In this document: piece by piece, positions 36,556 to 52,303 of the stretch | How the letters are laid out: each line of letters begins with the position of its first letter | Position numbering within the stretch: the first letter of the stretch is position 1 | Virus record (IMG/VR): IMGVR_UViG_3300050142_000050 | Location: 96,001 to 160,000 of that record | Reading direction: 5' to 3' (one strand) | DNA length: 64,000 nucleotides | Source of the DNA: a virus | Lineage: Duplodnaviria; Caudoviricetes | Notes under the pieces: model-generated | Database searches by the model: none | Told to the model about the DNA's origin: nothing | The model's input: only the letters and a program-made list of their open reading frames with translations | Program-made: the position numbers and the translations under genes

Positions 36556-38404
36556 CTCGGTTCCTCATGTCGATGATCTGACCAGTATTGGCCAACTTCG
36601 GAAGGATGTCCTTGAACCGACGGAACTGCTCATCATAACCGATGAAAGCTTGGATGAGAGCATGCTCGCCATCACAGTCCAGAAACCCTTTCATAACATC
36701 GGGATTGGCCAGATCGCCCTTCTGGATGACGGCTTCATCATCCTTGAGGCGACTGATGCGATAGACGAACTTACTGAAGCTATCTGTGGTCAGAGGGAGA
36801 GGTGCTCGAGTAGCAGCCATCAGGATCTCGACCAAGGTGGTCTGGAGATCGTGAATGACATGCGTCGGATCACTCTTCTCGACACGACCATTGATGATAC
36901 CCAGCATGTGATCATAGCCCGAAAGCACGAAGCCATCGAAGACTGCGCTGGTAGCCGCTGTGATGGCATCCTGGAACACGGTCAGGTTCGAGGCCTGCTC
37001 ATGCCGGGTATCGCCCAGTGTGATCTCATAGAGCTTCTGCGTCGTCGTATGACGATAAAGATCGGTAAGGTGTGCCAGATCTTCGGGATCCAGTGGAGGA
37101 TTGACCGGATCGTTCTGACACTTCTGGATGGTATCGAGCATCTCATCGACCACCGCATTGTAGAAAGGATGATCGGGAGAATTCAAGAAAGGATGGTTAC
37201 TCCCACCATCACGATGGTAGAGACCACTCAGTTCGACAGTGCCACCATGTTGGAACACACTCACACCACCATCGAGACCGATCAGGAGATCACTCGCGGA
37301 CTGCGTGAAGTTACGCTCGAACTTACCAGCACCGGCCACGGCCTTGATGGCTGATACCACCGAGTAGAGAAGACGAGGACGAGCGTGGAACTGGATGCGG
37401 ATGATCCGACCACCCTTCGTCTGCTGATTGTAGGTGTCGATGACCTGATTGAGACGCGATGATTGGAACGAAGGTGCCAAGATCACCAGATCTCGCGTCA
37501 ATCCTTCATTGAGCTTCTTCCAAGGTGTCATACCACCCAGATCCTGCATGGTAGCTGGATCATCACCGACGATGAGTTCGGTGAGGAAGAGCTCTTCCAG
37601 AGAGCTGTCAGCGATCACCTGCTCAGCCATATATAGGACGCAATCTTCCGACAGCATCTGTGTACCAGACTGGTGATTGAGGTCATAGTGAGATTCACAA
37701 CGACCTTCCAGGATGAAGTCGTAAGGGACCTGCTTCAGGATGAAGGGGTCAGAGATCTCAGTGGTCTCAGGACGCACCTTGAAGACTCGTCCACCCTTCT
37801 CAGGGAGACTGGACACCACGGTAGCGATCTTCTCGGACAGATCGCGGTTACCCTTCGAGCTGACCATGGCCATATTCCAGGCCACTGCATACTTGATGTC
37901 CTCACGGGAGTATTCACCCGCCAGATCCATCGTACCGATCAATTCCTCCAGATCATCGATCGTGATCTTGGTCTTCTCGAATTCCTGCCAAATGGACTTG
38001 AGCGTTTCAGCCAGTTGGATGGAACGAGCGATATTCTTAGTACCGATGATGTTCTCATCGAGACCATTGAGGATGTGGCGCATGCTCAGTGCCAGGAACA
38101 ACATCGATGTCGTGGTACCATCACCACAGCGCTGATCCACTGCATGGCCCACGAAGCGGCACATACGCGACAGACTGCGCTCCACCGGACATTCGGATGA
38201 GTAGAGCGATGTCAGGATGCGGATACCATCCTTGGTGAATTCCTCGACATCATTGTTCTGACGATATTTCGAGGAGATCAGGGCACTTGCCGCATAAGGA
38301 CCAGTGTGCAACTTGAGGATGTCGATGATCCCATCGAGTACCTTGACGCCCTTGGTCTTGAGATCTGCGATCGAAGACTGATTGTAATAGATTTTATCCG
38401 ACAT
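36533..38404 (-). CDS. groEL: GroEL-like chaperonin
   Basis: HTGPYA, FTKDGIRIL, CGDGTTTS and FQDAITAATSAVFDG correspond to GroEL nucleotide-binding motifs; ATG 38404 follows AAGAGGA. Confidence 0.85.
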   Translation of the reverse strand: MSDKIYYNQSSIADLKTKGVKVLDGIIDILKLHTGPYAASALISSKYRQNNDVEEFTKDGIRILTSLYSSECPVERSLSRMCRFVGHAVDQRCGDGTTTSMLFLALSMRHILNGLDENIIGTKNIARSIQLAETLKSIWQEFEKTKITIDDLEELIGTMDLAGEYSREDIKYAVAWNMAMVSSKGNRDLSEKIATVVSSLPEKGGRVFKVRPETTEISDPFILKQVPYDFILEGRCESHYDLNHQSGTQMLSEDCVLYMAEQVIADSSLEELFLTELIVGDDPATMQDLGGMTPWKKLNEGLTRDLVILAPSFQSSRLNQVIDTYNQQTKGGRIIRIQFHARPRLLYSVVSAIKAVAGAGKFERNFTQSASDLLIGLDGGVSVFQHGGTVELSGLYHRDGGSNHPFLNSPDHPFYNAVVDEMLDTIQKCQNDPVNPPLDPEDLAHLTDLYRHTTTQKLYEITLGDTRHEQASNLTVFQDAITAATSAVFDGFVLSGYDHMLGIINGRVEKSDPTHVIHDLQTTLVEILMAATRAPLPLTTDSFSKFVYRISRLKDDEAVIQKGDLANPDVMKGFLDCDGEHALIQAFIGYDEQFRRFKDILPKLANTGQIIDMRNRDAKPDNQ

Positions 38405-38423
38405 AAGTCCTCTTTTGAAAATT

Positions 38424-38450
38424 GAGCTGGGGGTCAAATGCCCCCAGCTC
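38424..38450 (-). terminator. Hairpin at the boundary upstream of the chaperonin
   Basis: gagctggggg-tcaaatg-cccccagctc. Confidence 0.5.
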
Positions 38451-39021
38451 GTAAACTCATCATTTCTTTGACGAGGAGCATGATTGTTTCATTAAGCTCC
38501 CCTTCTTTCCTCTTGGGCATCACCTTAGCTCGATCGTAGAGCTTTACCCATTCGTCATGCGGCATGTGGTGGTACACATCGGATACAGTGACACCGAACA
38601 CACTCTCGATCGGGTGTGACTCGAATGCCTCACAGATCTGGGTGAACAGATCTTTCCGTCTTAGATGAGCAGCTGTAGGCTCAAAGAAGCCTAGCATCTT
38701 TTCCAATGGGTTTGTGACGCCTTCAGGATAGATTCCCAAGATGCGAGCATTCATATCCTTACGGAAGAAGTCCCACTGGAAGTTCTCAGCTATACGGTTG
38801 GGGTCAGATACCCCTCGGTACGACTGAGACCTTCTCATCTCGTCATAAGTGTTCCACCACTCTTTCTCGGTATCAGCATTTACCTCTTTCGAGAATACTG
38901 TACCGCTGCGGTAAAAAAAGCGGAGAACGGATCGAATGTCAGGAGGCCAGAGGGAGTGTCCTCGGAGTGACCGCACTTGGGGCAGGCCATCGAGGGATAA
39001 CCGACATAGGTGATCTGACAC
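38434..39021 (-). CDS. Hypothetical protein; true start uncertain, probably downstream of 38880
   Basis: The C-terminal roughly 135 aa look coding; the first 47 codons overlap the upstream gene. Confidence 0.55.
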   Translation of the reverse strand: MSDHLCRLSLDGLPQVRSLRGHSLWPPDIRSVLRFFYRSGTVFSKEVNADTEKEWWNTYDEMRRSQSYRGVSDPNRIAENFQWDFFRKDMNARILGIYPEGVTNPLEKMLGFFEPTAAHLRRKDLFTQICEAFESHPIESVFGVTVSDVYHHMPHDEWVKLYDRAKVMPKRKEGELNETIMLLVKEMMSLRAGGI

Positions 39022-44042: not shown

Positions 44043-44417
44043 ATGTCCGAACCATCCGGCGAGATAGAAACTACCCAAGGAGGGGGTAGTGACCATGATG
44101 CCAAATTCGATCGTCTGTGTAACGCATTCGATTCTCTGGTAGAACGCATGGATCGAGATCGAGATGCGATCTTCGCACAGCTCGAGCAGATGAACGATCA
44201 TCATCATAAAACTCAGACAAAAATTGTCGAAGAGTTCAGCAGTGCAATCAGCACTCTGCGAGAAGGACAACGATCCATCGATGAGAATCAATCCAAGATT
44301 CTCTCCTCACAGGGCATGTTTGTGGGTGTGGTGGTGATTGCTGTGGCATTGGTGGTATCGAGTGTTAAGGGCGTACTCGAGATCATCTTCGATGTGTTCG
44401 ATATATTTGGACGATAA
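44043..44417 (+). CDS. Coiled-coil protein with C-terminal transmembrane helix
   Basis: AGGA ribosome-binding site before ATG 44043; hydrophobic MFVGVVVIAVALVVSSV. Confidence 0.65.
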   Translation: MSEPSGEIETTQGGGSDHDAKFDRLCNAFDSLVERMDRDRDAIFAQLEQMNDHHHKTQTKIVEEFSSAISTLREGQRSIDENQSKILSSQGMFVGVVVIAVALVVSSVKGVLEIIFDVFDIFGR

Positions 44418-44461: not shown

Positions 44462-45550
44462 TTATGCTGCTTTCTGACCAGCCTCTTCGGCCTGCTTCTT
44501 GAGCTTGCGACGAGTGACCTTATGGATATTCTTGACCAGCATCGCAAAAGCACCGGCCATGAAGCCGATAGCAGCTGCACATATGACCAACACCGCCTTC
44601 AGTGCAAACCCGAGAGACTTACGGATGAGCTTGGCAGCGACACGACGCCACAGCTTCTGACGGAAGTCATTCTCGATTCGGGATGCCGCGATAGAAGCCA
44701 TAGTGAAACGCTTCGTGAGATTGGTCACGAAACTATTCCCCGCGAGGAAACCTCCTACCTTCTTCAGGAGTTCTCCCAGTTTCGATTTGAAATCAGTGAA
44801 GACCTTGGTGAGCGTTTCCTTGTTCCAACCCAAAGCCGAAGGGGTACCGACTTCCTTGAACACGCCGTCACCGCCATCGACTTCGATAGTACCGGTGAAG
44901 ACAGTCTCAGTGCCCTGCACCTTCACATCCACATTGACCTTGCGTCCTGGGAACTTGATATTGCGGAGCTTGTCACGCAGATCATAGAGGACCTTCTGGA
45001 GCATGTTCCCATTGGCATACTCTGTCTTGGTCATAGCCAGTGTAGTACCGACCACTGCGGTCAGTGCCACAATCGAACCGATCACTCGGATCGCAGTACC
45101 ATGGCCAGTACCATCGATCTTCTCATCGATCTTACCCTTCACACGAGCCAGTGCATCGATAGCCGGCTTCAGGAAGGTGCCGACAGTCTCAGTCGCCTTC
45201 TTGAAAGAAGTGATGAGTTTGGCGATACCACTGGCGATCCAATCGACCACTTTGTTGGCAGCCTTCTTCGCAGTATCTGCGATAGCCTGCATGATACCTT
45301 CCATGGCCATGATCTTCTCATGCTCACCCATGCTCTCGAGAGCCACACCCGATTCCAGGAGTGTCCCATAGGCAGTACCGGCCAGGAGACTATTGCGGAT
45401 GATGGTACCACGCAGGATGGAGGTCAACTCCTCATTGGGGAGAGTGTCCTCCAGATGGTAGAGGGTATCGAGTTTACGTTCGAGATCATCGATCCCAGGA
45501 CCTTTGGTGAACATGTCCGAATTCCTTGCCTGTGAGGGGGTGACTTTCAT
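44462..45550 (-). CDS. Probable internal head (ejection) protein, 362 aa
   Basis: GVALES and AME processing-type motifs, then a Lys/Ala-rich body with hydrophobic segments, as in phiKZ-like internal head proteins. Confidence 0.6.
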   Translation of the reverse strand: MKVTPSQARNSDMFTKGPGIDDLERKLDTLYHLEDTLPNEELTSILRGTIIRNSLLAGTAYGTLLESGVALESMGEHEKIMAMEGIMQAIADTAKKAANKVVDWIASGIAKLITSFKKATETVGTFLKPAIDALARVKGKIDEKIDGTGHGTAIRVIGSIVALTAVVGTTLAMTKTEYANGNMLQKVLYDLRDKLRNIKFPGRKVNVDVKVQGTETVFTGTIEVDGGDGVFKEVGTPSALGWNKETLTKVFTDFKSKLGELLKKVGGFLAGNSFVTNLTKRFTMASIAASRIENDFRQKLWRRVAAKLIRKSLGFALKAVLVICAAAIGFMAGAFAMLVKNIHKVTRRKLKKQAEEAGQKAA

Positions 45551-45561
45551 AAAATGTAATG

Positions 45562-45586
45562 GGAGAGGGGCGTAATGCCCCTCTCC
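45562..45586 (-). terminator. Hairpin after RNase H
   Basis: ggagaggggc-gtaat-gcccctctcc. Confidence 0.6.
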
Positions 45587-46114
45587 TCAAATAGGGTCAT
45601 ACTTCCCATTCTTAATGGAACTATCGGTGAGCATACGTCGCGTCAGATCGGTAGCTAACTTGTCGGCCATGTCATTGAGTTTGTCTCCACTATGAGATTT
45701 CACCTTGACATAACGACATGACTTTAGCTTATCGATCTTTGCTCCGATCTCTCTGATGAGATCGGCATTCTTGATGGGCTCCCCATTGACCCCTATCCAT
45801 CCACGCTTAGCCCACATCTTCCTCCACACAAAGAGGGAAGCAAGCGTATAAGCACTGTCACTATAGATGACCACTGTCTCCAGATCAGGTAAATCCAGAG
45901 CATAGTTGACGGCCATCAATTCCATCTGGTTGATGGTAGCTCCACGGTGAGCATAGGCAGCAGTATGGACGATCTTCTTATTGATATCGTCCCACACTAC
46001 ATAAGCGCATGATGATGCATCGGGTCGTCTGTGCGATCCGTCAGTGTAAATGTGGACTACAGATGGAATCTTCTTGGGGAGATCTGCATCTTTGGTTTCC
46101 ATGGTGATCTCCAT
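45587..46114 (-). CDS. rnhA: Ribonuclease HI
   Basis: IYTDGS, TINQMELMAV, IYSDSAY, NADL and VKSHSG...NDMADKLA include the D-E-D-D catalytic set. Confidence 0.93.
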   Translation of the reverse strand: MEITMETKDADLPKKIPSVVHIYTDGSHRRPDASSCAYVVWDDINKKIVHTAAYAHRGATINQMELMAVNYALDLPDLETVVIYSDSAYTLASLFVWRKMWAKRGWIGVNGEPIKNADLIREIGAKIDKLKSCRYVKVKSHSGDKLNDMADKLATDLTRRMLTDSSIKNGKYDPI

Positions 46115-46153
46115 TCATTCTCTATCAAACCATGGTCGCCCTATAGGGAAAAT

Positions 46154-46196
46154 AAAACCAGAATCAATTATTTTCAACACTATATCACCACAGTGA
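46154..46196 (+). promoter_or_regulatory. Putative strong early promoter with upstream AAAACCAGAATCAA element
   Basis: aaaaccagaatcaa-N6-tcaac-N2-tatatcac-N5-tg, duplicated at 49154-49196. Confidence 0.75.
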
Positions 46197-46248
46197 AGTT
46201 AAGGTAATGAATAGTTCGTTATCTCAATTTCATCAAGGAGAATGTCCC

Positions 46249-46458
46249 ATGAAGATTCTGCACAAGCTCTCGATGAAGGCCAACATCGCAACGCACTCGC
46301 TGATCTCGAGCACTAAGACTGTGGTGTCGTCCTACAAGAACGATCCCACGTTCCGCTCCAATGTGAACATGATGGGTATCGCCTTCATCTATGGCGCCGC
46401 GACATCACACAACTACCACACTCGCAAAGCCCGCAAGGCTGCGAAGAACAAAGCCTGA
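46249..46458 (+). CDS. Small basic early protein (69 aa)
   Basis: AAGGAG ribosome-binding site before ATG 46249. Confidence 0.7.
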   Translation: MKILHKLSMKANIATHSLISSTKTVVSSYKNDPTFRSNVNMMGIAFIYGAATSHNYHTRKARKAAKNKA

Positions 46459-46469
46459 TCAAACTGGCG

Positions 46470-46509
46470 TCCTACGTGGTGTGGGGATATTCCCCACACC
46501 ACTATTGAA
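46470..46509 (+). repeat. Internal-loop hairpin element 1
   Basis: TC-CTAC-gtggtgtgggga-tat-tccccacaccac-TATT-GA. Confidence 0.8.
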
Positions 46510-46538
46510 ATCAGTTATACACCTCAAGGAGAATCAAC

Positions 46539-46727
46539 ATGTTTGGTATCAAGAAGGCTATAGTCAACGCCTCGCAAGTCAAGAATCACATCAGAGGTGA
46601 CATCGAACTCCGCATCAGAGCCACTGATGCATTTGCTGCCTTCGGTGAAGGCTTCGGTGTCGGTCTCATCGCATCGATCCCAGTAGCGATCGCATTCATC
46701 ACCATCGCCAAGAAAGCCATCAAGTGA
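46539..46727 (+). CDS. Membrane microprotein (62 aa, C-terminal TM)
   Basis: AAGGAG ribosome-binding site; FGVGLIASIPVAIAFITIA-KKAIK. Confidence 0.8.
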   Translation: MFGIKKAIVNASQVKNHIRGDIELRIRATDAFAAFGEGFGVGLIASIPVAIAFITIAKKAIK

Positions 46728-46732
46728 CTATC

Positions 46733-46775
46733 TTCCTACGGACTGTGATCTTGTCCTAATCACAGTCCTATTGAA
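46733..46775 (+). repeat. Internal-loop hairpin element 2
   Basis: TTC-CTAC-ggactgtgat-N9-atcacagtcc-TATT-GAA. Confidence 0.8.
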
Positions 46776-46805
46776 CATAGTTATCAAAAATCAAGGAGAA
46801 CACCC

Positions 46806-47237
46806 ATGTCCACCATCGCCTGCTTCTCACCCAAGATCGTCCGTCAGGGTAATAAGCATATCGTTATCATGAACCCCTTCGCGAAGCCCGCTAATGTGGG
46901 TCGTCGATTCGTCGAAACAATCGGATACACCGAAACGAAGGATCTCCTCTCGCTCAACTCGTACGATATCGAAGAGCGTGAGTTCGAATACTTCTCGCCC
47001 TCCTACCAGTACGCTTATGCTGAGTTTATGGAGCGTCCGGATGCTAAGGAGATCCTGGGTCGTATCATTGAAAATGCTATCCACCTCAACGCCAAAGAAG
47101 CTCGTGCTCACATGACTCACAACAACGCCAGTGAACCGATATACAACACCGACTGGTCGCAGTTCACGATCTCGATCGACACTCTCTACCAGATCCATGC
47201 ACAGACTGCCGAAATGGTAGTCGACTCATTCAAGTAA
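46806..47237 (+). CDS. Early hypothetical protein (143 aa)
   Basis: AAGGAG ribosome-binding site. Confidence 0.8.
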   Translation: MSTIACFSPKIVRQGNKHIVIMNPFAKPANVGRRFVETIGYTETKDLLSLNSYDIEEREFEYFSPSYQYAYAEFMERPDAKEILGRIIENAIHLNAKEARAHMTHNNASEPIYNTDWSQFTISIDTLYQIHAQTAEMVVDSFK

Positions 47238-47245
47238 ACACTATT

Positions 47246-47285
47246 TTCCTACGTACTGCGGGTATTAACCCGCAGTACTATTGAG
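47246..47285 (+). repeat. Internal-loop hairpin element 3
   Basis: TTC-CTAC-gtactgcgggt-atta-acccgcagtac-TATT-GAG. Confidence 0.8.
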
Positions 47286-47305
47286 CATAGTTTAAGGAGG
47301 TCCTT

Positions 47306-47668
47306 ATGAACTTCATCATTCATACCGTTGTGGCCATGTTTATCACTCAGCTAATTATGGTAGTCTTCACCTTCTCGAAATTGACACGTCCGTACAAGGA
47401 CATCCCACTCAAGAACAAGGTGATCTTTGTCCTGGCCAACGTCGGCGTACTGCTGACCCTATCTACGCCGATTCTGATCTTCGCTTTGACGAAGGTTCTG
47501 TTTCTCGGGGTCGTTGCGATTATCGCGTCATTCACTGTATTTTCAGTCGTCATCGTAATGGATGTCGCGGGTCATGACCTGGGCGTTGATGTGAAATCAG
47601 ATTTGATGCGTTGCAACCGCATCTCGTACATTCTCAGCTGCGCATCATTCGGTCTCATCGGCCGGTAA
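47306..47668 (+). CDS. Small multi-pass membrane protein (120 aa)
   Basis: AAGGAGG ribosome-binding site; three to four hydrophobic stretches. Confidence 0.8.
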   Translation: MNFIIHTVVAMFITQLIMVVFTFSKLTRPYKDIPLKNKVIFVLANVGVLLTLSTPILIFALTKVLFLGVVAIIASFTVFSVVIVMDVAGHDLGVDVKSDLMRCNRISYILSCASFGLIGR

Positions 47669-47693
47669 CCCAACTCCAATAAGGAATATCACC

Positions 47694-48056
47694 ATGTCTC
47701 ACCCTGACGTCGACCTGCGCACTGCGCGTGATGTATTCGGCAAACATGCCAAATCGATCTTCAACAAGGAAACCTATTATCCTTCGATCGATGAGAAGAC
47801 AGCTTCTCGCTCGGGTATTCCCGAATGCGATCGTGTCCTCTTCAACAAGTTGACCAAGCGGATCATCGATGATCCCGATTGCGATATCACTAAGGCTGAG
47901 CTGGCGGTCTTCATGTCCGTCCGTAAGACCTTTCCTGAGATCGGTGTCGAAATCGACTACATCGTCAAGACCAACAAGTATCGCAAGCCCATACTGGGCG
48001 GTATCATCGGAACCCTGATTACGGCCGTGGGTGTCCTGGCCTTCATCAATCGCTGA
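47694..48056 (+). CDS. Tail-anchored membrane protein (120 aa)
   Basis: C-terminal ILGGIIGTLITAVGVLAFI-NR. Confidence 0.8.
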   Translation: MSHPDVDLRTARDVFGKHAKSIFNKETYYPSIDEKTASRSGIPECDRVLFNKLTKRIIDDPDCDITKAELAVFMSVRKTFPEIGVEIDYIVKTNKYRKPILGGIIGTLITAVGVLAFINR

Positions 48057-48057
48057 C

Positions 48058-48095
48058 CTCTTACATGGGTAGGAATATTCCTACCCATCATTGAG
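48058..48095 (+). repeat. Internal-loop hairpin element 4
   Basis: CTC-TTAC-atgggtagga-atat-tcctacccat-CATT-GAG. Confidence 0.8.
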
Positions 48096-48126
48096 CTCAA
48101 TGAAAAGCTCTCCAAGGAGAATACAC

Positions 48127-48306
48127 ATGTCTGACAACAATACCAACAAAGAGTCCATCGAGTCCATCCGCGAAAAGACCCAGCTCTATGAAAAGCTGGC
48201 TGAAGCTCATCGCGAAAAGCGCCAGCTCAAGGAAGAGGTCGCCAAGGGCACCATCCTGACGGCAGTCGCATGCTCGCTCTATTTCATCTTCGGTCTCAAG
48301 AAGTAA
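48127..48306 (+). CDS. Membrane microprotein (59 aa, C-terminal TM)
   Basis: AAGGAG before ATG 48127; GTILTAVACSLYFIFGL-KK. Confidence 0.75.
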   Translation: MSDNNTNKESIESIREKTQLYEKLAEAHREKRQLKEEVAKGTILTAVACSLYFIFGLKK

Positions 48307-48320
48307 GAAAGGTTTTCACC

Positions 48321-48500
48321 ATGACCCCCCAGAACAATCAGTCGGAACTCGACATCGCCAACGAAAAGCTCGAAAAGGCCAAGGCCGCTTTCACCGAAGC
48401 CGCTTCTGACAGCGAGCGCACCTCCAAGCGCGAAGTGGTGGCCGGCGCTGCTTCGATCACGGCCTTCGGGATCCTGATCTATCGGGCCTTCTTCTCGTAA
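48321..48500 (+). CDS. Membrane microprotein (59 aa, C-terminal TM)
   Basis: AAAGG before ATG 48321; VVAGAASITAFGILIY-R. Confidence 0.75.
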   Translation: MTPQNNQSELDIANEKLEKAKAAFTEAASDSERTSKREVVAGAASITAFGILIYRAFFS

Positions 48501-48508
48501 CAACATTC

Positions 48509-48550
48509 CTCTTACATGCATAGGGGCATTTGTCCCTATGCATCGTTGAG
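48509..48550 (+). repeat. Internal-loop hairpin element 5
   Basis: CTC-TTAC-atgcataggg-N8-ccctatgcat-CGTT-GAG. Confidence 0.8.
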
Positions 48551-48575
48551 TGATGTAACAACTCAGGAGTGAAAA

Positions 48576-48740
48576 ATGGATAACGAACAACTCAATGAAA
48601 TTGAAGAGCATGACCGCTACAACAAAGCAGCCATTCGCTTCAACACCACACTCGACGCCGCCGGCGCGGTACTGATCACCGCCGCAGGTCTCTGTCTCTC
48701 CGCAATCGCGATTCTCGCGACCAAGCGAATTTCCAAGTGA
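48576..48740 (+). CDS. Membrane microprotein (54 aa; not in the ORF track)
   Basis: AGGAG ribosome-binding site; MDNEQLNEIEEHDRYNKAAIRFNTTLDAAGAVLITAAGLCLSAIAILATKRISK. Confidence 0.75.
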   Translation: MDNEQLNEIEEHDRYNKAAIRFNTTLDAAGAVLITAAGLCLSAIAILATKRISK

Positions 48741-48748
48741 GGACTACC

Positions 48749-48880
48749 ATGGACAACAACGAACCCGCCTACACCCCCGAGCAGCTCAACTCCAAGACCG
48801 CGGCGATCTACATCGGTGCCGCATGGGGAGCGATCTGCTTCGCCATCGGATACTTCGGTGTCCGCGTCATCAATAAGTAA
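48749..48880 (+). CDS. Membrane microprotein (43 aa; not in the ORF track)
   Basis: GAGGA ribosome-binding site; MDNNEPAYTPEQLNSKTAAIYIGAAWGAICFAIGYFGVRVINK. Confidence 0.75.
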   Translation: MDNNEPAYTPEQLNSKTAAIYIGAAWGAICFAIGYFGVRVINK

Positions 48881-48896
48881 TCGGAGAGGATTACAC

Positions 48897-49025
48897 ATGG
48901 AAGATCGTGCAGAAGAAAAAGCTCCCAATCCCGACAACCGGGACAAGGAGTTCGTCCTGGGGCTGGGTAGTGTGGTAGCACTCCTCGCATCCATCGTTTG
49001 TCTCACCTCGGTATTGCGGAGTTAA
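48897..49025 (+). CDS. Membrane microprotein (42 aa)
   Basis: GAGAGGA ribosome-binding site; MEDRAEEKAPNPDNRDKEFVLGLGSVVALLASIVCLTSVLRS. Confidence 0.7.
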   Translation: MEDRAEEKAPNPDNRDKEFVLGLGSVVALLASIVCLTSVLRS

Positions 49026-49030
49026 ATACC

Positions 49031-49150
49031 ATGGAAGAAGCACCAAAGAAGACCCTCGAGGTCGTCGTCAATGTCTCGAACAAGGCCGTGATCCTGGGTA
49101 GCCTGTCTGCCCTGGTGACTGGCGTGATCTACGGGATTCTCAATCGCTAG
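49031..49150 (+). CDS. Membrane microprotein (39 aa; not in the ORF track)
   Basis: GGAG ribosome-binding site; MEEAPKKTLEVVVNVSNKAVILGSLSALVTGVIYGILNR. Confidence 0.7.
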   Translation: MEEAPKKTLEVVVNVSNKAVILGSLSALVTGVIYGILNR

Positions 49151-49153
49151 ATC

Positions 49154-49196
49154 AAAACCAGAATCAAAAAATATCAACCTCATATCACAACTGTGA
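49154..49196 (+). promoter_or_regulatory. Second copy of the putative early promoter
   Basis: aaaaccagaatcaa...tcaacct-catatcac-aactg-tg, near-identical to 46154-46196. Confidence 0.75.
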
Positions 49197-49249
49197 ATGG
49201 GGAAAACAATCCTGTTCTTTTCAATCATCTTTTTTGAGTGGAGCTCAAC

Positions 49250-49609
49250 ATGTCTATCACCAACAACGATTCCGCCGACCTGAACAACAACGGCGACAAC
49301 AACAGCCGTGCCAACAAGAAGGTCGAGTCGAAGACCACGACCGCCAAGAGCGAAGACGGCTCGAAGACCACCACCACGACGGTGGAAACCGAAACCGAAG
49401 TCAAGCCCGGTCTGTTCGGTCGTCTCTTCGGCACCATCGCCCGCAACCCCGTCAAGTCGACCGTCGTGGTCGCTGCTGTGGGCACGGGTGCATACTTCGG
49501 CTACAAGCACTTCCAGTCGGCCGGCGAAGTCGTCGTGGCCACCTCGGATGTCGTCGAAGAATCGGCTGAAGTGGCCGTCGAAACCGCGGCTGCCTTCTTC
49601 GGCCGCTGA
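49250..49609 (+). CDS. Single-TM protein (119 aa) with polar N-terminus and acidic Ala/Val tail
   Basis: GGAG before ATG 49250; strongly GC3-biased codons; TVVVAAVGTGAYFGY. Confidence 0.8.
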   Translation: MSITNNDSADLNNNGDNNSRANKKVESKTTTAKSEDGSKTTTTTVETETEVKPGLFGRLFGTIARNPVKSTVVVAAVGTGAYFGYKHFQSAGEVVVATSDVVEESAEVAVETAAAFFGR

Positions 49610-49660
49610 TACCTCTACCACAATAACCGTGGGTCGCATCACTAATAGGAGGTAATCGAC

Positions 49661-49723
49661 ATGATTGCCATGATGATCAATCTGCTGATGAAAACCTCTT
49701 CGGTTATCACCGGTAAGAAATAA
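49661..49723 (+). CDS. Putative 20-aa peptide MIAMMINLLMKTSSVITGKK
   Basis: Preceded by AGGAGGT at good spacing. Confidence 0.45.
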   Translation: MIAMMINLLMKTSSVITGKK

Positions 49724-49733
49724 GGAACGAACG

Positions 49734-49856
49734 ATGGAGAAGACTTCCTCTATTGTCGGAACCATCGTCGTATTCGGCCTCGCCATTTATGGCGCGATCG
49801 ATTTGGGCTACAAGATCCTCACGATGTCGCGCAAGCTCAGCGAATACGACGAGTGA
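49734..49856 (+). CDS. Membrane microprotein (40 aa, N-terminal TM; not in the ORF track)
   Basis: AAGGA ribosome-binding site; MEKTSSIVGTIVVFGLAIYGAIDLGYKILTMSRKLSEYDE. Confidence 0.7.
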   Translation: MEKTSSIVGTIVVFGLAIYGAIDLGYKILTMSRKLSEYDE

Positions 49857-49860
49857 TAGA

Positions 49861-49903
49861 GTGGTGGGGGCATATGCCCCCACCACCTTATCCTTTATTT
49901 TTT
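49861..49903 (+). terminator. Terminator closing the early cassette
   Basis: gtggtgggggca-ta-tgcccccaccac followed by a displaced TTTATTTTTT. Confidence 0.75.
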
Positions 49904-49940
49904 GTCTTCATTGTATGTCACCCGATAGAGGGAACCTATA

Positions 49941-50915
49941 ATGGATAGCTTAGAAGCGGCATCTATCGATGCTATTATCACTCTCATGGCTACACTCTCC
50001 CCCAAAGCGAGAGACAATGTGGAAGGTGAGCTCTATCGAGCTACTGCTTCCTCTGATGAAGCCACACCTGCTCATATCCTCGAGACGGTCTTCTCCGATT
50101 TTGTAGATGACCTCAAGGAAGTGGGTATCACTCTCTCCTTGGATCTCAATGAGATTCTCAACACACCCTCTCTCTTGGGTGAGTTTGTAGAGCTCAGCAG
50201 CTACATCTTACCCAACAACCTTTATGCCCACGTGAAGGGTAACCCCAGGATCCGTAGTCTGATCAACTCCATCCTGGAGGGATCAGCGGCTGAGCATGAG
50301 ACCACCATCGAAGCCTACCTGACAGGACTGGCTGGTCTGGAGACAGACAATCCGATCCTACCTGACCTGGTGTATTTCATCGATGCCAATCATTCCAAGA
50401 TCGGTCAGACTGGTATTTTCACAGATTATCTCCACGAGATCAAATCTCTGGCTGATGATGAGCGACTCTCAGTCGACTCCGATGATGAAACCCATATGGC
50501 TTTCTCTCAGAGGATCAAGGATATCGCAGGTCGCTTCAAGAATGCATTGTTGGTCTATGAGGATGATTCCCTCTTCAGGATCTTCAACATCTTCTTGCGA
50601 GACCTCCTGTCTCCCATGAATTTCATTCACTATTCCTACCTCTTCTTGAACAAAGCAGAAGATCTCCCTGAGGAGATCGGTGAGTTGTTCAGACGCAGGT
50701 GGTATCAGTTCTATGTCACCCATCAGATCTTCCCTGAGTACTATACAGTGCGCCCAGGGATGTCTCCGAGTGAGAATATGGCCAAAGCCATGGTAGCTGC
50801 GGCCTACACCTTCTCTCCGGATGTGGAAGCCTTCGACCGACGGATGCGCGATATCAATGAACTCATTCCCGTCGAGGGTGGTCTGATCCGATCGCTTTAT
50901 GAGGAGATCAACTAA
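49941..50915 (+). CDS. Hypothetical protein (324 aa)
   Basis: GAGGG ribosome-binding site; stop overlaps the RNAP subunit start (TAATG). Confidence 0.8.
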   Translation: MDSLEAASIDAIITLMATLSPKARDNVEGELYRATASSDEATPAHILETVFSDFVDDLKEVGITLSLDLNEILNTPSLLGEFVELSSYILPNNLYAHVKGNPRIRSLINSILEGSAAEHETTIEAYLTGLAGLETDNPILPDLVYFIDANHSKIGQTGIFTDYLHEIKSLADDERLSVDSDDETHMAFSQRIKDIAGRFKNALLVYEDDSLFRIFNIFLRDLLSPMNFIHYSYLFLNKAEDLPEEIGELFRRRWYQFYVTHQIFPEYYTVRPGMSPSENMAKAMVAAAYTFSPDVEAFDRRMRDINELIPVEGGLIRSLYEEIN

Positions 50916-52303
50916 TGCAACGTCCTCCTATCGTGGAGCACATCATCCGGCATCCTGAATCCTTGATCTATATCGGATTCAACAAGGAGATCTGGATGAT
51001 ACCAGATCGCCTCCTGGCCGATGTACGGACATCTCCCACCGAACTCAAGTTCGAACTCGCCATGCGAGTGGCTCCCTATCGAGGGAAGCTATTCGTCCAT
51101 GACGGTATGTTCTATGCCATTACATCTTGGGAGCGGACTGACGATAGGTCGACTGACAGTCGGACTTATACCGTCGAAGCGATCGAGACGGGAGTCCCTC
51201 ATGATTCCAGCGAAAAGTTCCCTCTCCTGCGTCCCTCCGATGTGATCGAGATCCGTCCTGGAGAAATCATGAATTACAAAGGTGGTGAAATCATCAAGAC
51301 GACCGTGGGTCGTTTTGTGGCTAACTACCTCCTCTTGTGTTATCCATTCGGCGAAACGGTGGATTACATCAATGAGGAATTCTCGGCAGGTAAGCTTGAA
51401 GGTCTCATCTCCAAGCTGATCCTCAGTAAGAAGATCTCGCCTCGAGTCTTCAAGGACAAATTCGTCAATACCCTGACACTCCATGGTCATACGACCGAGA
51501 TGTTCTGTCCGGGTATCTCGGCGAAGGTGATCACCGTCCCAGATCATGTCAAGAATCTCCTCATAAGGCTCGTAGAAGAGAATAAGGAAGCTTTGGAGGC
51601 AGGTGACTCATCTGTGATGAGTGACATCGAGAAGGCCGTTATTTCGGCTTACAAGGACTACCTCAAAGGAGACTCATCACTTCACTTCCTCCTCAAGAGC
51701 AAGTACTTTGCAGTGACCCTCAAGAAGCTGTTCCTGACACATGGGATGGTAGAAGTGTTCGGTCAACCTGGGAAGTTCGTCTGGGTCACACAGGCCATGG
51801 GTTCTGGGTGGAAGAAGAAGGACTTTTCTGTCATCTGTAATGAGACCAGACAGGGCTCATTCTCACGAGCTGTGGAAACTCAGTTCGGTGGTGTTATTGC
51901 GAAGATGATTCTGCGTGTGTTCCAGGATGTCATCATCGGCCTTGCTGATTGTGGTACATCTCATGGTGAACCTATGCTCGGTACACCTGCCCTGGCCAAA
52001 GAGATCGAGAACTCTTATCAGATCCTACCGAGTGGCGAAAGCTCTCTCATCGATGCGTCTACCGCAAAGAGTCTGGTAGGTAAGAAGTTCTATCTCCGCA
52101 CACCTGGGTATTGTGAAGCAGAAGGTGGATATTGCTCCAGATGCTTCGGTTATATCTACGAAGAACACGGCCAGAGATCCTTCGCTACCCTAGCGAATGA
52201 CTTTGCTCGAAATCAAACGACTGCATCACTCAAAAAGATGCATGGTGTCAGCCACAGTACGGTGGATGTGTCCGACTTGAATAAATTCCTAGTCGCGACG
52301 TAA
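50915..52303 (+). CDS. rpoC: Virion RNAP beta' C-terminal subunit (phiKZ gp80-like)
   Basis: GSFSRAVETQFGG bridge-helix-like segment, DCGT, zinc motif RTPGYC...CSRCFG, and trigger-loop-like SLKKMHG. Confidence 0.85.
   Translation: MQRPPIVEHIIRHPESLIYIGFNKEIWMIPDRLLADVRTSPTELKFELAMRVAPYRGKLFVHDGMFYAITSWERTDDRSTDSRTYTVEAIETGVPHDSSEKFPLLRPSDVIEIRPGEIMNYKGGEIIKTTVGRFVANYLLLCYPFGETVDYINEEFSAGKLEGLISKLILSKKISPRVFKDKFVNTLTLHGHTTEMFCPGISAKVITVPDHVKNLLIRLVEENKEALEAGDSSVMSDIEKAVISAYKDYLKGDSSLHFLLKSKYFAVTLKKLFLTHGMVEVFGQPGKFVWVTQAMGSGWKKKDFSVICNETRQGSFSRAVETQFGGVIAKMILRVFQDVIIGLADCGTSHGEPMLGTPALAKEIENSYQILPSGESSLIDASTAKSLVGKKFYLRTPGYCEAEGGYCSRCFGYIYEEHGQRSFATLANDFARNQTTASLKKMHGVSHSTVDVSDLNKFLVAT

Follow-up and report, generated by a model that had tools for sequence, protein, structure and literature searches.

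Results

A cassette of thirteen co-oriented genes

We analysed 64,000 nucleotides of a phage genome (hereafter the window), corresponding to bases 96001-160000 of a single 249,638-bp contig of 50.6% GC that IMG/VR lists as IMGVR_UViG_3300050142_000050, a linear virus record about 89% complete. The subject of this report is a cassette of small genes at window positions 46154-49903, most of whose products are probably, judging from their sequences, small single-helix membrane proteins. Coordinates are those of the window unless given as genome positions. Between 46249 and 49856 lie 13 genes, all on the + strand, on which a manual reading, a caller based on codon usage and ribosome-binding sites, and public gene calls taken independently from six JGI and Logan contigs all agree. 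In order, their products measure 69, 62, 143, 120, 120, 59, 59, 54, 43, 42, 39, 119 and 40 aa. A preliminary description of the locus had counted about 15 co-oriented genes; the common orientation stands, whereas the count becomes 13, or 14 with an uncertain 20-codon open reading frame (ORF; MIAMMINLLMKTSSVITGKK, 49661-49723, + strand) that has a strong Shine-Dalgarno sequence, TAGGAGG. This ORF, called by no gene caller, sits between the two clade-conserved genes of the cassette, and its one single-nucleotide polymorphism (SNP) is synonymous.

The genes appear to form two transcription units, both read from the + strand. Promoter P1 (46154-46197), composed of an upstream element, AAAACCAGAATCAA, and a core, TATATCAC-N4-GTGA, is followed by a 5' leader of about 55 nt and heads unit 1 (46249-49150). 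Promoter P2 (49154-49197) heads unit 2 (49250-49856). P2 starts 4 nt past the stop codon that ends the preceding gene, at 49031; therefore read-through from P1 into the P2 unit is likely. A terminator (49861-49903), made of a strong GC-rich hairpin (49861-49886) followed by CTTATCCTTTATTTTTTG, closes both units.

Unit 1 begins with a 69-aa gene (46249-46458) whose product has a basic C-terminus and a hydrophobic stretch under the transmembrane threshold. It continues with genes for a 62-aa protein (46539-46727; C-terminal helix at residues 39-57, then KKAIK), a 143-aa soluble orphan (46806-47237), a 120-aa protein with three predicted transmembrane helices (47306-47668) and a second 120-aa protein (47694-48056), which has a helical N-terminal domain and a C-terminal helix at residues 100-118, then NR. 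Two 59-aa genes follow: the product of the first (48127-48306) has a charged helical N-terminal part and a C-terminal helix ending in LKK, and that of the second (48321-48500) a C-terminal helix with an Arg within the final stretch YRAFFS. The last four genes of the unit encode proteins of 54 aa (48576-48740; acidic N-terminus, C-terminal helix, then TKRISK), 43 aa (48749-48880; glycine-zipper-like C-terminal helix, then RVINK), 42 aa (48897-49025; acidic N-terminus, C-terminal helix) and 39 aa (49031-49150; C-terminal helix, then NR). Unit 2 comprises a 119-aa gene (49250-49609), whose product has a Thr-rich N-terminus, a PGLFGR...NP motif and a weak Gly/Ala-rich hydrophobic stretch, and a 40-aa gene (49734-49856) with an N-terminal helix.

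These genes are real and under constraint. The codon score is best in the annotated frame, out of six, for all 13, and ten have a ribosome-binding site of the GGAG or AAGGA type or better. A second haplotype, found in three runs, differs from the reference at 24 positions, 18 of them coding, and 12 of these 18 coding SNPs in the co-occurring strain are synonymous where chance predicts 24-34% (binomial p no higher than 0.005). In the 120-aa gene at 47694 five of six SNPs are synonymous, and the sole change within a predicted helix is Ile to Val. Identical independent calls, frame scores and this synonymous excess between strains bear out the earlier reading of the locus as one of genuine genes.

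All 24 differences of the second haplotype fall within 47900-49817, and the left-hand 1.7 kb (46183-47899) is identical, a pattern that looks like a recombination mosaic of co-occurring strains. Two single-sample contigs carry changed genes, either of which may be an assembly error: in one (L002:7557-7877) the 119-aa gene has an in-frame 39-bp deletion in its Thr-rich part, leaving 106 aa, and in the other (L003:5119-5544) the 143-aa gene is split by small indels into 61 and 69 aa.

Most products carry one C-terminal hydrophobic helix

Helices were detected on the Kyte-Doolittle scale with a 19-residue window, and the Wimley-White octanol scale served as a second check; both agree on the same ten proteins. 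The Kyte-Doolittle signal is clear at 46539, 47694, 48321, 48576, 48749, 48897, 49031 and 49734 and borderline at 48127 (1.59). These nine proteins have a single helix, which is C-terminal in eight (the 62-, 120-, 59-, 59-, 54-, 43-, 42- and 39-aa products), where the window value is at least 1.59 and the helix ends no more than 8 residues from the C-terminus; on the Wimley-White scale, the energies of these helices run from -3 to -6.5 kcal/mol. All eight have two of the features of a tail anchor, a single predicted helix near the C-terminus and the absence of an N-terminal signal. Seven of the eight helices are followed by a tail with Lys or Arg (KKAIK, NR, LKK, TKRISK, RVINK, SVLRS and NR). 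The architecture that had been described here, proteins of 39-120 aa with a mostly C-terminal helix and a basic tail, is thus recovered, as is the multi-pass protein at 47306. The claim of at least ten single-helix proteins holds for nine of the listed loci and fails for the 119-aa protein at 49250, which has only a weak Gly/Ala-rich stretch (Kyte-Doolittle 1.13) that is unfavourable on the Wimley-White scale.

The architecture is strongly enriched. A helix of any kind is predicted in 10 of the 13 proteins versus 15 of 66 other proteins of up to 125 aa encoded by the genome (Fisher p=3e-4), and a C-terminal helix in 8 of 13 versus 7 of 66 (p=2e-4). The cassette helices are also distinct in composition: Gly, Ala and Ser make up 37% of their residues versus 22% in other helices predicted at the same threshold (p=3e-4), and small-xxx-small motifs number 2.0 per helix versus 0.7. 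Such small-residue-rich helices suggest helix-helix packing or self-association. The net charge of the C-terminal flank ranges from 0 to +3, the 59-aa protein at 48321 being neutral and the other seven positive, and that of the N-terminal flank from -1 to +2, several N-tails being acidic. From these charges, several of the proteins would fit an N-out/C-in topology like that of Pf3 coat and others true tail anchoring.

The phage belongs to a putative unsampled clade of phiKZ-like jumbo phages

Just downstream of the cassette, positions 50915-52303 encode a fragment of the beta' subunit of a multisubunit RNA polymerase (RNAP). It is 27-30% identical to proteins of phiKZ-like phages, some annotated as virion RNAP subunit; the best of these matches (E=1e-30 to 2e-33) are virion RNAP subunits. 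Its matches further include about 55 uncultivated contigs (45-56% identity), of which several measure 250-310 kb. Given these matches, the sequence places the phage in a clade of phiKZ-like jumbo phages that is unsampled. Cultured phages gave no match to the cassette in megablast, a search for relatives in IMG/VR with back-translated patterns found none, and Proteus phage 10, whose RNAP gene is the best match among cultured phages, has no comparable island at that site. The phage recurs nearly unchanged in 24 leaf-litter metagenome runs, all DNA and probably from one campaign.

The preliminary description referred to nucleus-forming jumbo phages; that this phage forms a nucleus is only weakly indicated by its genome. 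As features of Chimalliviridae we used a ChmA shell and split multisubunit RNAPs, with PhuZ tubulin optional. The split multisubunit RNAP is represented here by the beta' fragment. A 561-aa gene (genome 37823) has a faint precomputed match to PF25677, the Pfam family Chimallin_Phikzvirus; as a chimallin it was negative in local Pfam, in tblastn against phages, among PDB sequences and in the atlas, and a scan of metagenomes with a chimallin pattern was likewise negative. The tubulin-like gene matches PF00091 at E=3.4e-6, under the Pfam cut-off.

Unit 1 is a hypervariable accessory island

Six uncultivated relatives (L007, L008, L009, L014, L015 and L016) share a gene order at this site: an RNase H gene on the - strand is followed by small genes that form a block on the + strand, then by one that encodes about 330 aa and finally by the RNAP beta' gene. 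The block contains from 4 to more than 20 genes, which are unrelated to those of the window and mostly encode soluble proteins; a helix is predicted in 9 of the 11 proteins of unit 1 versus 6 of 59 in the syntenic islands (p=3.5e-6). The 11 genes behind P1 are a hypervariable, lineage-specific accessory island, and variable content, which the preliminary description had proposed to look for among relatives, is what all six display. The same comparison tells against a second claim, that the cassette is a membrane-remodelling toolkit tied to the early vesicle. Because the relatives carry unrelated, mostly soluble genes in its place, the island is not conserved early-vesicle machinery, and that over-reading is corrected here.

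In five relatives the same two genes are found again at the 3' end of the block, and within the cassette only the two behind P2 are clade-conserved. Members of family A1, among them the 119-aa gene, have a head rich in Thr and Ala, a PGFFGR...NP motif and a Gly-rich stretch; family A2, which includes the 40-aa gene, comprises proteins of 40-49 aa with an N-terminal helix. Searched against 1.8 billion proteins, the A1 profile retrieved 42 cluster representatives, and the ten that were looked up came from metagenomes only and bore no informative name. Neither family has a consistent match among cultured phages in PHROG, and PHROG 8574 (SPN3US gp66) does not match the 40-aa family. The cassette is thus composite, an accessory island of 11 genes behind P1 and a clade-conserved pair behind P2; a conserved membrane role, should some part of the cassette have one, would fall to this pair.

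Shortly upstream of the cassette, a 124-aa protein with a C-terminal helix is encoded at 44043-44417, and a 350-aa gene at 44462-45514 (- strand) is paralogous to three genes at other places in the genome (blastp 1e-10 to 2e-5). A 361-aa gene in a similar place in L007 has a weak match to a phiKZ inner-body-protein family of Pfam.

All 11 island proteins are orphans, as judged by sequence and structure searches. Pfam, PHROG and NCBIfam gave nothing for them at curated cut-offs (best E-values 0.03 or weaker), nor did the superinfection-exclusion or holin profiles of these collections match; Pfam and PHROG gave nothing at or near cut-offs for the two unit-2 proteins. For the 120-aa tail-helix protein, a word-indexed search of 5.8 billion clusters returned nothing but a strain variant of that protein; in cultured phages tblastn found no relative of either the 143-aa or the three-helix protein, and PDB sequences gave nothing for the 143-aa protein. 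In the ESM Atlas the 120-aa protein met unnamed viral clusters only, below 0.9. AlphaFold2 models built without an alignment were of low confidence (predicted local distance difference test 38 for the 143-aa protein and 56 for the 120-aa protein at 47694), and the low-confidence 120-aa model had no Foldseek match in PDB at E of 0.001 or less. Nor are the microproteins detectably related to one another: blastp found no paralogy, and in local alignments against segment-wise shuffles the best of 45 pairs reached a z of 3.5, which is not significant.

Both promoters belong to a conserved, probably early class

P1 and P2 are 80% identical over 44 nt, and their joint pattern has two matches in the window where 0.00 are expected. 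The third copy, at genome 91609 just ahead of the window, shares about 30 nt of leader as well. The wider motif YATATYAC-N4-RTG has six copies in the window (0.23 expected), all of them intergenic and on the + strand, and about 20 in the genome, each 40-190 nt upstream of a gene; it precedes the tubulin-like gene and, by 161 nt, the gene with the faint chimallin match. In model phages chimallin and nvRNAP are early genes. The relatives carry the same core at syntenic sites, several of them also with an upstream AAACCRAGATCAA element. The extended P1 form is kept at the same site in L007, and promoters of this class stand ahead of the orthologue of the 119-aa gene in L009, L014 and L015. The two promoters that had been noticed are therefore real copies of the one conserved promoter class of this genome.

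In jumbo phages that encode RNAPs, the operon motif that bioinformatics can detect is the early promoter of the virion RNAP, whereas middle and late promoters escape such detection (PMC7598289; see also PMC8244752). YATATYAC-N4-RTG is likewise a conserved, AT-rich motif, repeated on the coding strand upstream of about 20 operons. Because the detectable motif in such phages is the virion-RNAP promoter, it is a reasonable inference, by analogy, that the promoter class is the early one and that both units are expressed early; the label of an early cassette is supported to that extent by the likeness to the phiKZ-like class (PMC7598289).

The genome also has about 80 intergenic GC-rich tetraloop hairpins of the GGAGGG...CCCTCC type, typically followed by CTTATCC and a T-run. 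Several stand directly ahead of a YATATYAC promoter, a terminator-promoter grammar much like that of phiKZ.

A covarying element divides the island into modules

A repeat of about 55 nt lies in five gaps of the island, at 46463-46518 (E1), 46727-46782 (E2), 47240-47292 (E3), 48052-48105 (E4) and 48503-48556 (E5), with five further copies in two other small-gene regions; all ten copies in the genome are on the + strand, between small genes of three accessory regions. It is built of an outer stem of 5 bp (ACTAT/ATAGT), an invariant middle stem of 2-3 bp, a conserved 4x4 internal loop (CUAC / UAUU) and an inner stem of 10-13 bp that varies in sequence. Thirteen of 16 tested pairs change on both sides, with 97.5% of cells paired; none of 500 shuffles reaches the observed value, and slid controls collapse. 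Single-sequence folds have z-scores of -5 to -6 (E1: -27.7 kcal/mol, z = -6.0). The five elements split the island into six modules, encoding products of [69], [62], [143], [120+120], [59+59] and [54+43+42+39] aa, and genes within one module are 5-25 nt apart.

The stem GTGGTGTGGGG is common to four copies and ATGGGTAGGA to two, which gives 25-45 bp of homology between distant regions. In some contigs of the same samples the hairpin is in common and the flanks are foreign, which is weak evidence on recombination. Searches for the element elsewhere were largely negative: Rfam has no family on the elements (its two matches in 45500-50500 are at chance level and both lie off them), an exact search of IMG/VR for the element with the commonest stem found none, and a covariance model run on the loci of the six relatives returned the training copies and one weak match, with no full copy from a relative. 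The element probably acts as an attenuator or as an RNA-processing or stabilising site; it could equally be an attenuator of the phage polymerase or a site that acts at the DNA level. A sigma-70 reading of its TTGA was rejected, given that the implied start would fall past the ribosome-binding site.

Several side observations concern the element. In the second haplotype the tip of the E5 hairpin (48526-48533) reads GGGACAAATGCCCC in place of GGGGCATTTGTCCC, the exact reverse complement and so an inversion of the tip, and on the + strand this turns a G-U pair into an A-C mismatch. A weak full-length match at 38399-38472 (- strand; 23.6 bits, E of about 0.003) may be a diverged copy or may be due to chance. 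Repeated TTAC-hairpin-TTGA elements of another sequence also separate island genes in the relative L014 (about 51% RNAP identity; L014:1165-5215), and the covariance model fails to reach them; the type of element may be older than the sequence family modelled here.

Three copies (L017, L018 and L019, at genome 194781, 198368 and 204474) lie in a region of small orphan genes at 190-206 kb, which also encodes several small multi-pass membrane proteins. Two more lie in a sister mini-cassette behind the third promoter copy (L011:609-2520, genome 91609-93519), with genes for products of 210, 106, 73, 54 and 93 aa, in that order. The 106-aa product has three helices and the 73-aa one a C-terminal helix; the 73-aa protein starts with MFGF, like the MFGI of the 62-aa protein. 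The sister mini-cassette converges on a gene for a signal-anchored endolysin (genome 93569-94135, - strand; PHROG 7, E=1e-16).

Discussion

Taken together, the locus would comprise two transcription units, and the phage itself is an uncultivated jumbo phage of the phiKZ-like kind. Unit 1 may be regarded as a "hyperplastic" accessory island at a conserved site, with RNase H on one side and on the other the conserved small-gene pair, after which come the gene of about 330 aa and the beta' gene of the virion RNAP. The injected virion RNAP probably transcribes both units early. Nine of the 11 products of unit 1, the eight proteins with a C-terminal helix rich in Gly, Ala and Ser and the one with three helices, would then reside at the inner membrane, the microproteins inserting into the host cytoplasmic membrane post-translationally or via YidC. 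There their helices may pack onto membrane-embedded host machinery, defence effectors or incoming competitor phages; superinfection exclusion, host takeover and anti-defence are possible roles. The structured elements may supply homology for the shuffling of modules, as the promoter early stem-loops (PeSLs) do in T4-type phages, and the island as a whole would be dispensable and subject to fast turnover.

Since all the proteins are orphans, their function has to be read from architecture and context. We think it fairly probable that unit 1 encodes dispensable, fast-turning-over early proteins that insert into the host inner membrane and act on membrane-embedded targets. An anti-defence or exclusion role is plausible, and any one activity taken singly, be it exclusion or interference with host machinery or with defence effectors, is less likely than not.

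A number of points weigh against this reading. The helices are predictions from hydropathy only, and the charges that flank them are ambiguous as to orientation. The promoter analogy is the sole basis for early timing, and no RNA runs are listed among those that contain the phage. The selection signal is small, coming from 18 SNPs of a single haplotype within 47900-49817. Relatives of known function were found for none of the proteins; exclusion, takeover and anti-defence are a prior taken from other phages and not a result. As for shuffling, no gain or loss of a module at an element is seen among the near-clonal contigs, and none of the five elements has a YATATYAC core in or beside it, so that the PeSL analogy is partial.

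A question remains, are these genes of any use to the phage? Short ORFs with a hydrophobic end easily arise and persist, and the island could be an "ORFanage", an insertion-tolerant region of young genes with little or no function, most of whose products have no specific target. The orphan status of every protein and the lack of detectable paralogy agree with this, as do the extreme turnover between relatives, the broken 143-aa gene of one contig and the 39-bp in-frame deletion in the 119-aa gene of another. Neutral birth, however, does not predict so strong an enrichment of one architecture, nor a common helix composition despite no detectable homology, and the synonymous excess, the strong ribosome-binding sites and the tight packing likewise speak for function. 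We regard it as unlikely that the island is mostly such material.

The preferred reading, that of early inner-membrane effectors, also has to be set against a role in the timing of lysis, with the Gly-rich single-helix and three-helix proteins serving as holin, antiholin, pinholin-like pore formers or regulators of these. Such proteins would be small and have charged ends and one to three helices of glycine-zipper-like character, as seen here, and the sister mini-cassette adjoins a signal-anchored endolysin. That endolysin, however, lies about 48 kb from the cassette; no holin family of Pfam, PHROG or NCBIfam matches, eight or nine candidates are far above the need of a lysis system, the promoter class is common to presumed early genes and the content is not kept in relatives. 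A lysis set is accordingly quite improbable.

A bolder form of the membrane reading is very doubtful in our view: unrelated microproteins that converged on one design would be modular, shuffleable membrane effectors exchanged at the structured element, with the P2 pair as the fixed membrane component. Each would consist of a head of polar residues, a C-terminal helix of the glycine-zipper-like type and a basic tail, and would insert post-translationally at the cytoplasmic face of the host membrane or of the early vesicle. If true, it would mean a phage-encoded tail-anchored proteome together with a system of cassette exchange, neither of them described for jumbo phages.

That the microproteins remodel the early phage infection (EPI) vesicle, form transport channels in it or pass the genome to a nascent nucleus is highly improbable, because all 11 island genes are absent from every relative examined, though relatives should share the vesicle stage, and because the vesicle arises at injection, ahead of phage gene expression (PMC12908238; 10.1101/2023.09.20.558163), to which are added the faint indication of chimallin and unit-2 families that lack a consistent PHROG match in cultured phages and, in the ten looked-up matches of the 119-aa family, are metagenomic only, whereas in favour stand a probably early promoter class, the ability of tail-type helices to insert post-translationally from the cytoplasmic side, the clade conservation of both unit-2 genes behind the same promoter class and the fact that the EPI-vesicle channels for nucleotide import and mRNA export are unidentified (PMC12908238).

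Regardless of which activity the proteins have, the island is of use as a compact test set. The orphan early genes of jumbo phages run into the hundreds; here are nine predicted membrane microproteins with one architecture and no shared ancestry, at a site where the islands of relatives lack them. This contrast could show what selects for membrane-targeted accessory genes, for example membrane-bound defences of the host or heavy co-infection in leaf litter. Two regulatory motifs of the unsampled phiKZ-like clade, the covarying element and the extended promoter, are new.

Similarities to known systems

T4 Imm and Sp, and the host-takeover module of SPO1, which includes gp56, are small phage membrane proteins that block superinfection or host functions. 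The products of the island resemble them in being small and probably early, dispensable and located at the inner membrane, which they would cross once, the proteins compared being single- or double-pass, and in being encoded in small-gene clusters with strong ribosome-binding sites. Unlike them, the island proteins show no sequence or profile similarity to any of these, and eight C-terminal helices among eleven genes is an unusual density. Pf3 coat is a single-span protein inserted by YidC, and several of the proteins here have a similar acidic N-tail and basic C-tail. Like the C-tail-anchored proteins of bacteria (PMC3426401), they have one helix near the C-terminus and no signal peptide, and they are short enough to need post-translational or YidC-type insertion. 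Compared with both the C-tail-anchored proteins and Pf3 coat, the flanking charges suggest mixed orientations here.

The promoter core, (C/T)ATAT(T/C)AC, resembles the early core of phiKZ. The early operons of phiKZ have an AT-rich motif of about 10 nt ahead of many of them, read by the virion RNAP, and the motif here is placed likewise (PMC7598289, PMC8244752). The phiKZ chimallin gene has an early promoter; here the chimallin-like gene stands behind the same promoter class. The terminators, hairpins with a TTAT-type tail, are of the same type as the conserved ones of phiKZ (PMC10914365). Two parts of the promoter motif, the extended element AAACCRAGATCAA upstream and RTG downstream, are peculiar to this clade and differ from phiKZ, and the intercistronic elements lack a T-rich tail, unlike both phiKZ-type terminators and the ordinary ones of this genome. 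The comparison with phiKZ is one of sequences.

The early mRNA of T7 has RNase III processing hairpins between its cistrons. The element described here is like those sites in its succession of stem, internal loop and stem, its length of about 55 nt, its place between the cistrons of a polycistronic transcript and its lack of a U-tract; there is no sequence relation, and the likeness is one of shape alone.

The closest described analogue of the intercistronic element is the PeSL of T4-type phages, a promoter and stem-loop motif that flanks orphan genes of hyperplastic regions and mediates their shuffling (PMC2839356, PMC4122927). As in the T4 hyperplastic regions, small orphan genes, here presumably non-essential, form clusters whose sites between core genes are fixed. 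As with the PeSL, a repeated stable stem-loop bounds the modules, and its copies in several regions offer homology; early expression, here suggested by the promoter class, would be a further likeness. The two differ in that each PeSL has an early promoter of the sigma-70 type, whereas here one promoter heads a whole unit and the polymerase is presumably that of the phage. The element has, in addition, a three-tier structure with a conserved 4x4 internal loop, and recombination end points lie in the PeSL motifs, whereas none is seen here, where the available contigs are near-clonal. Clusters of small, early orphan genes, some of them for membrane proteins, in the variable regions of large phages are of a known kind, represented by the T4 hyperplastic regions and SPO1; new here are the one dominant architecture among unrelated neighbours, the conserved pair of the clade, the extended promoter and the covarying element.

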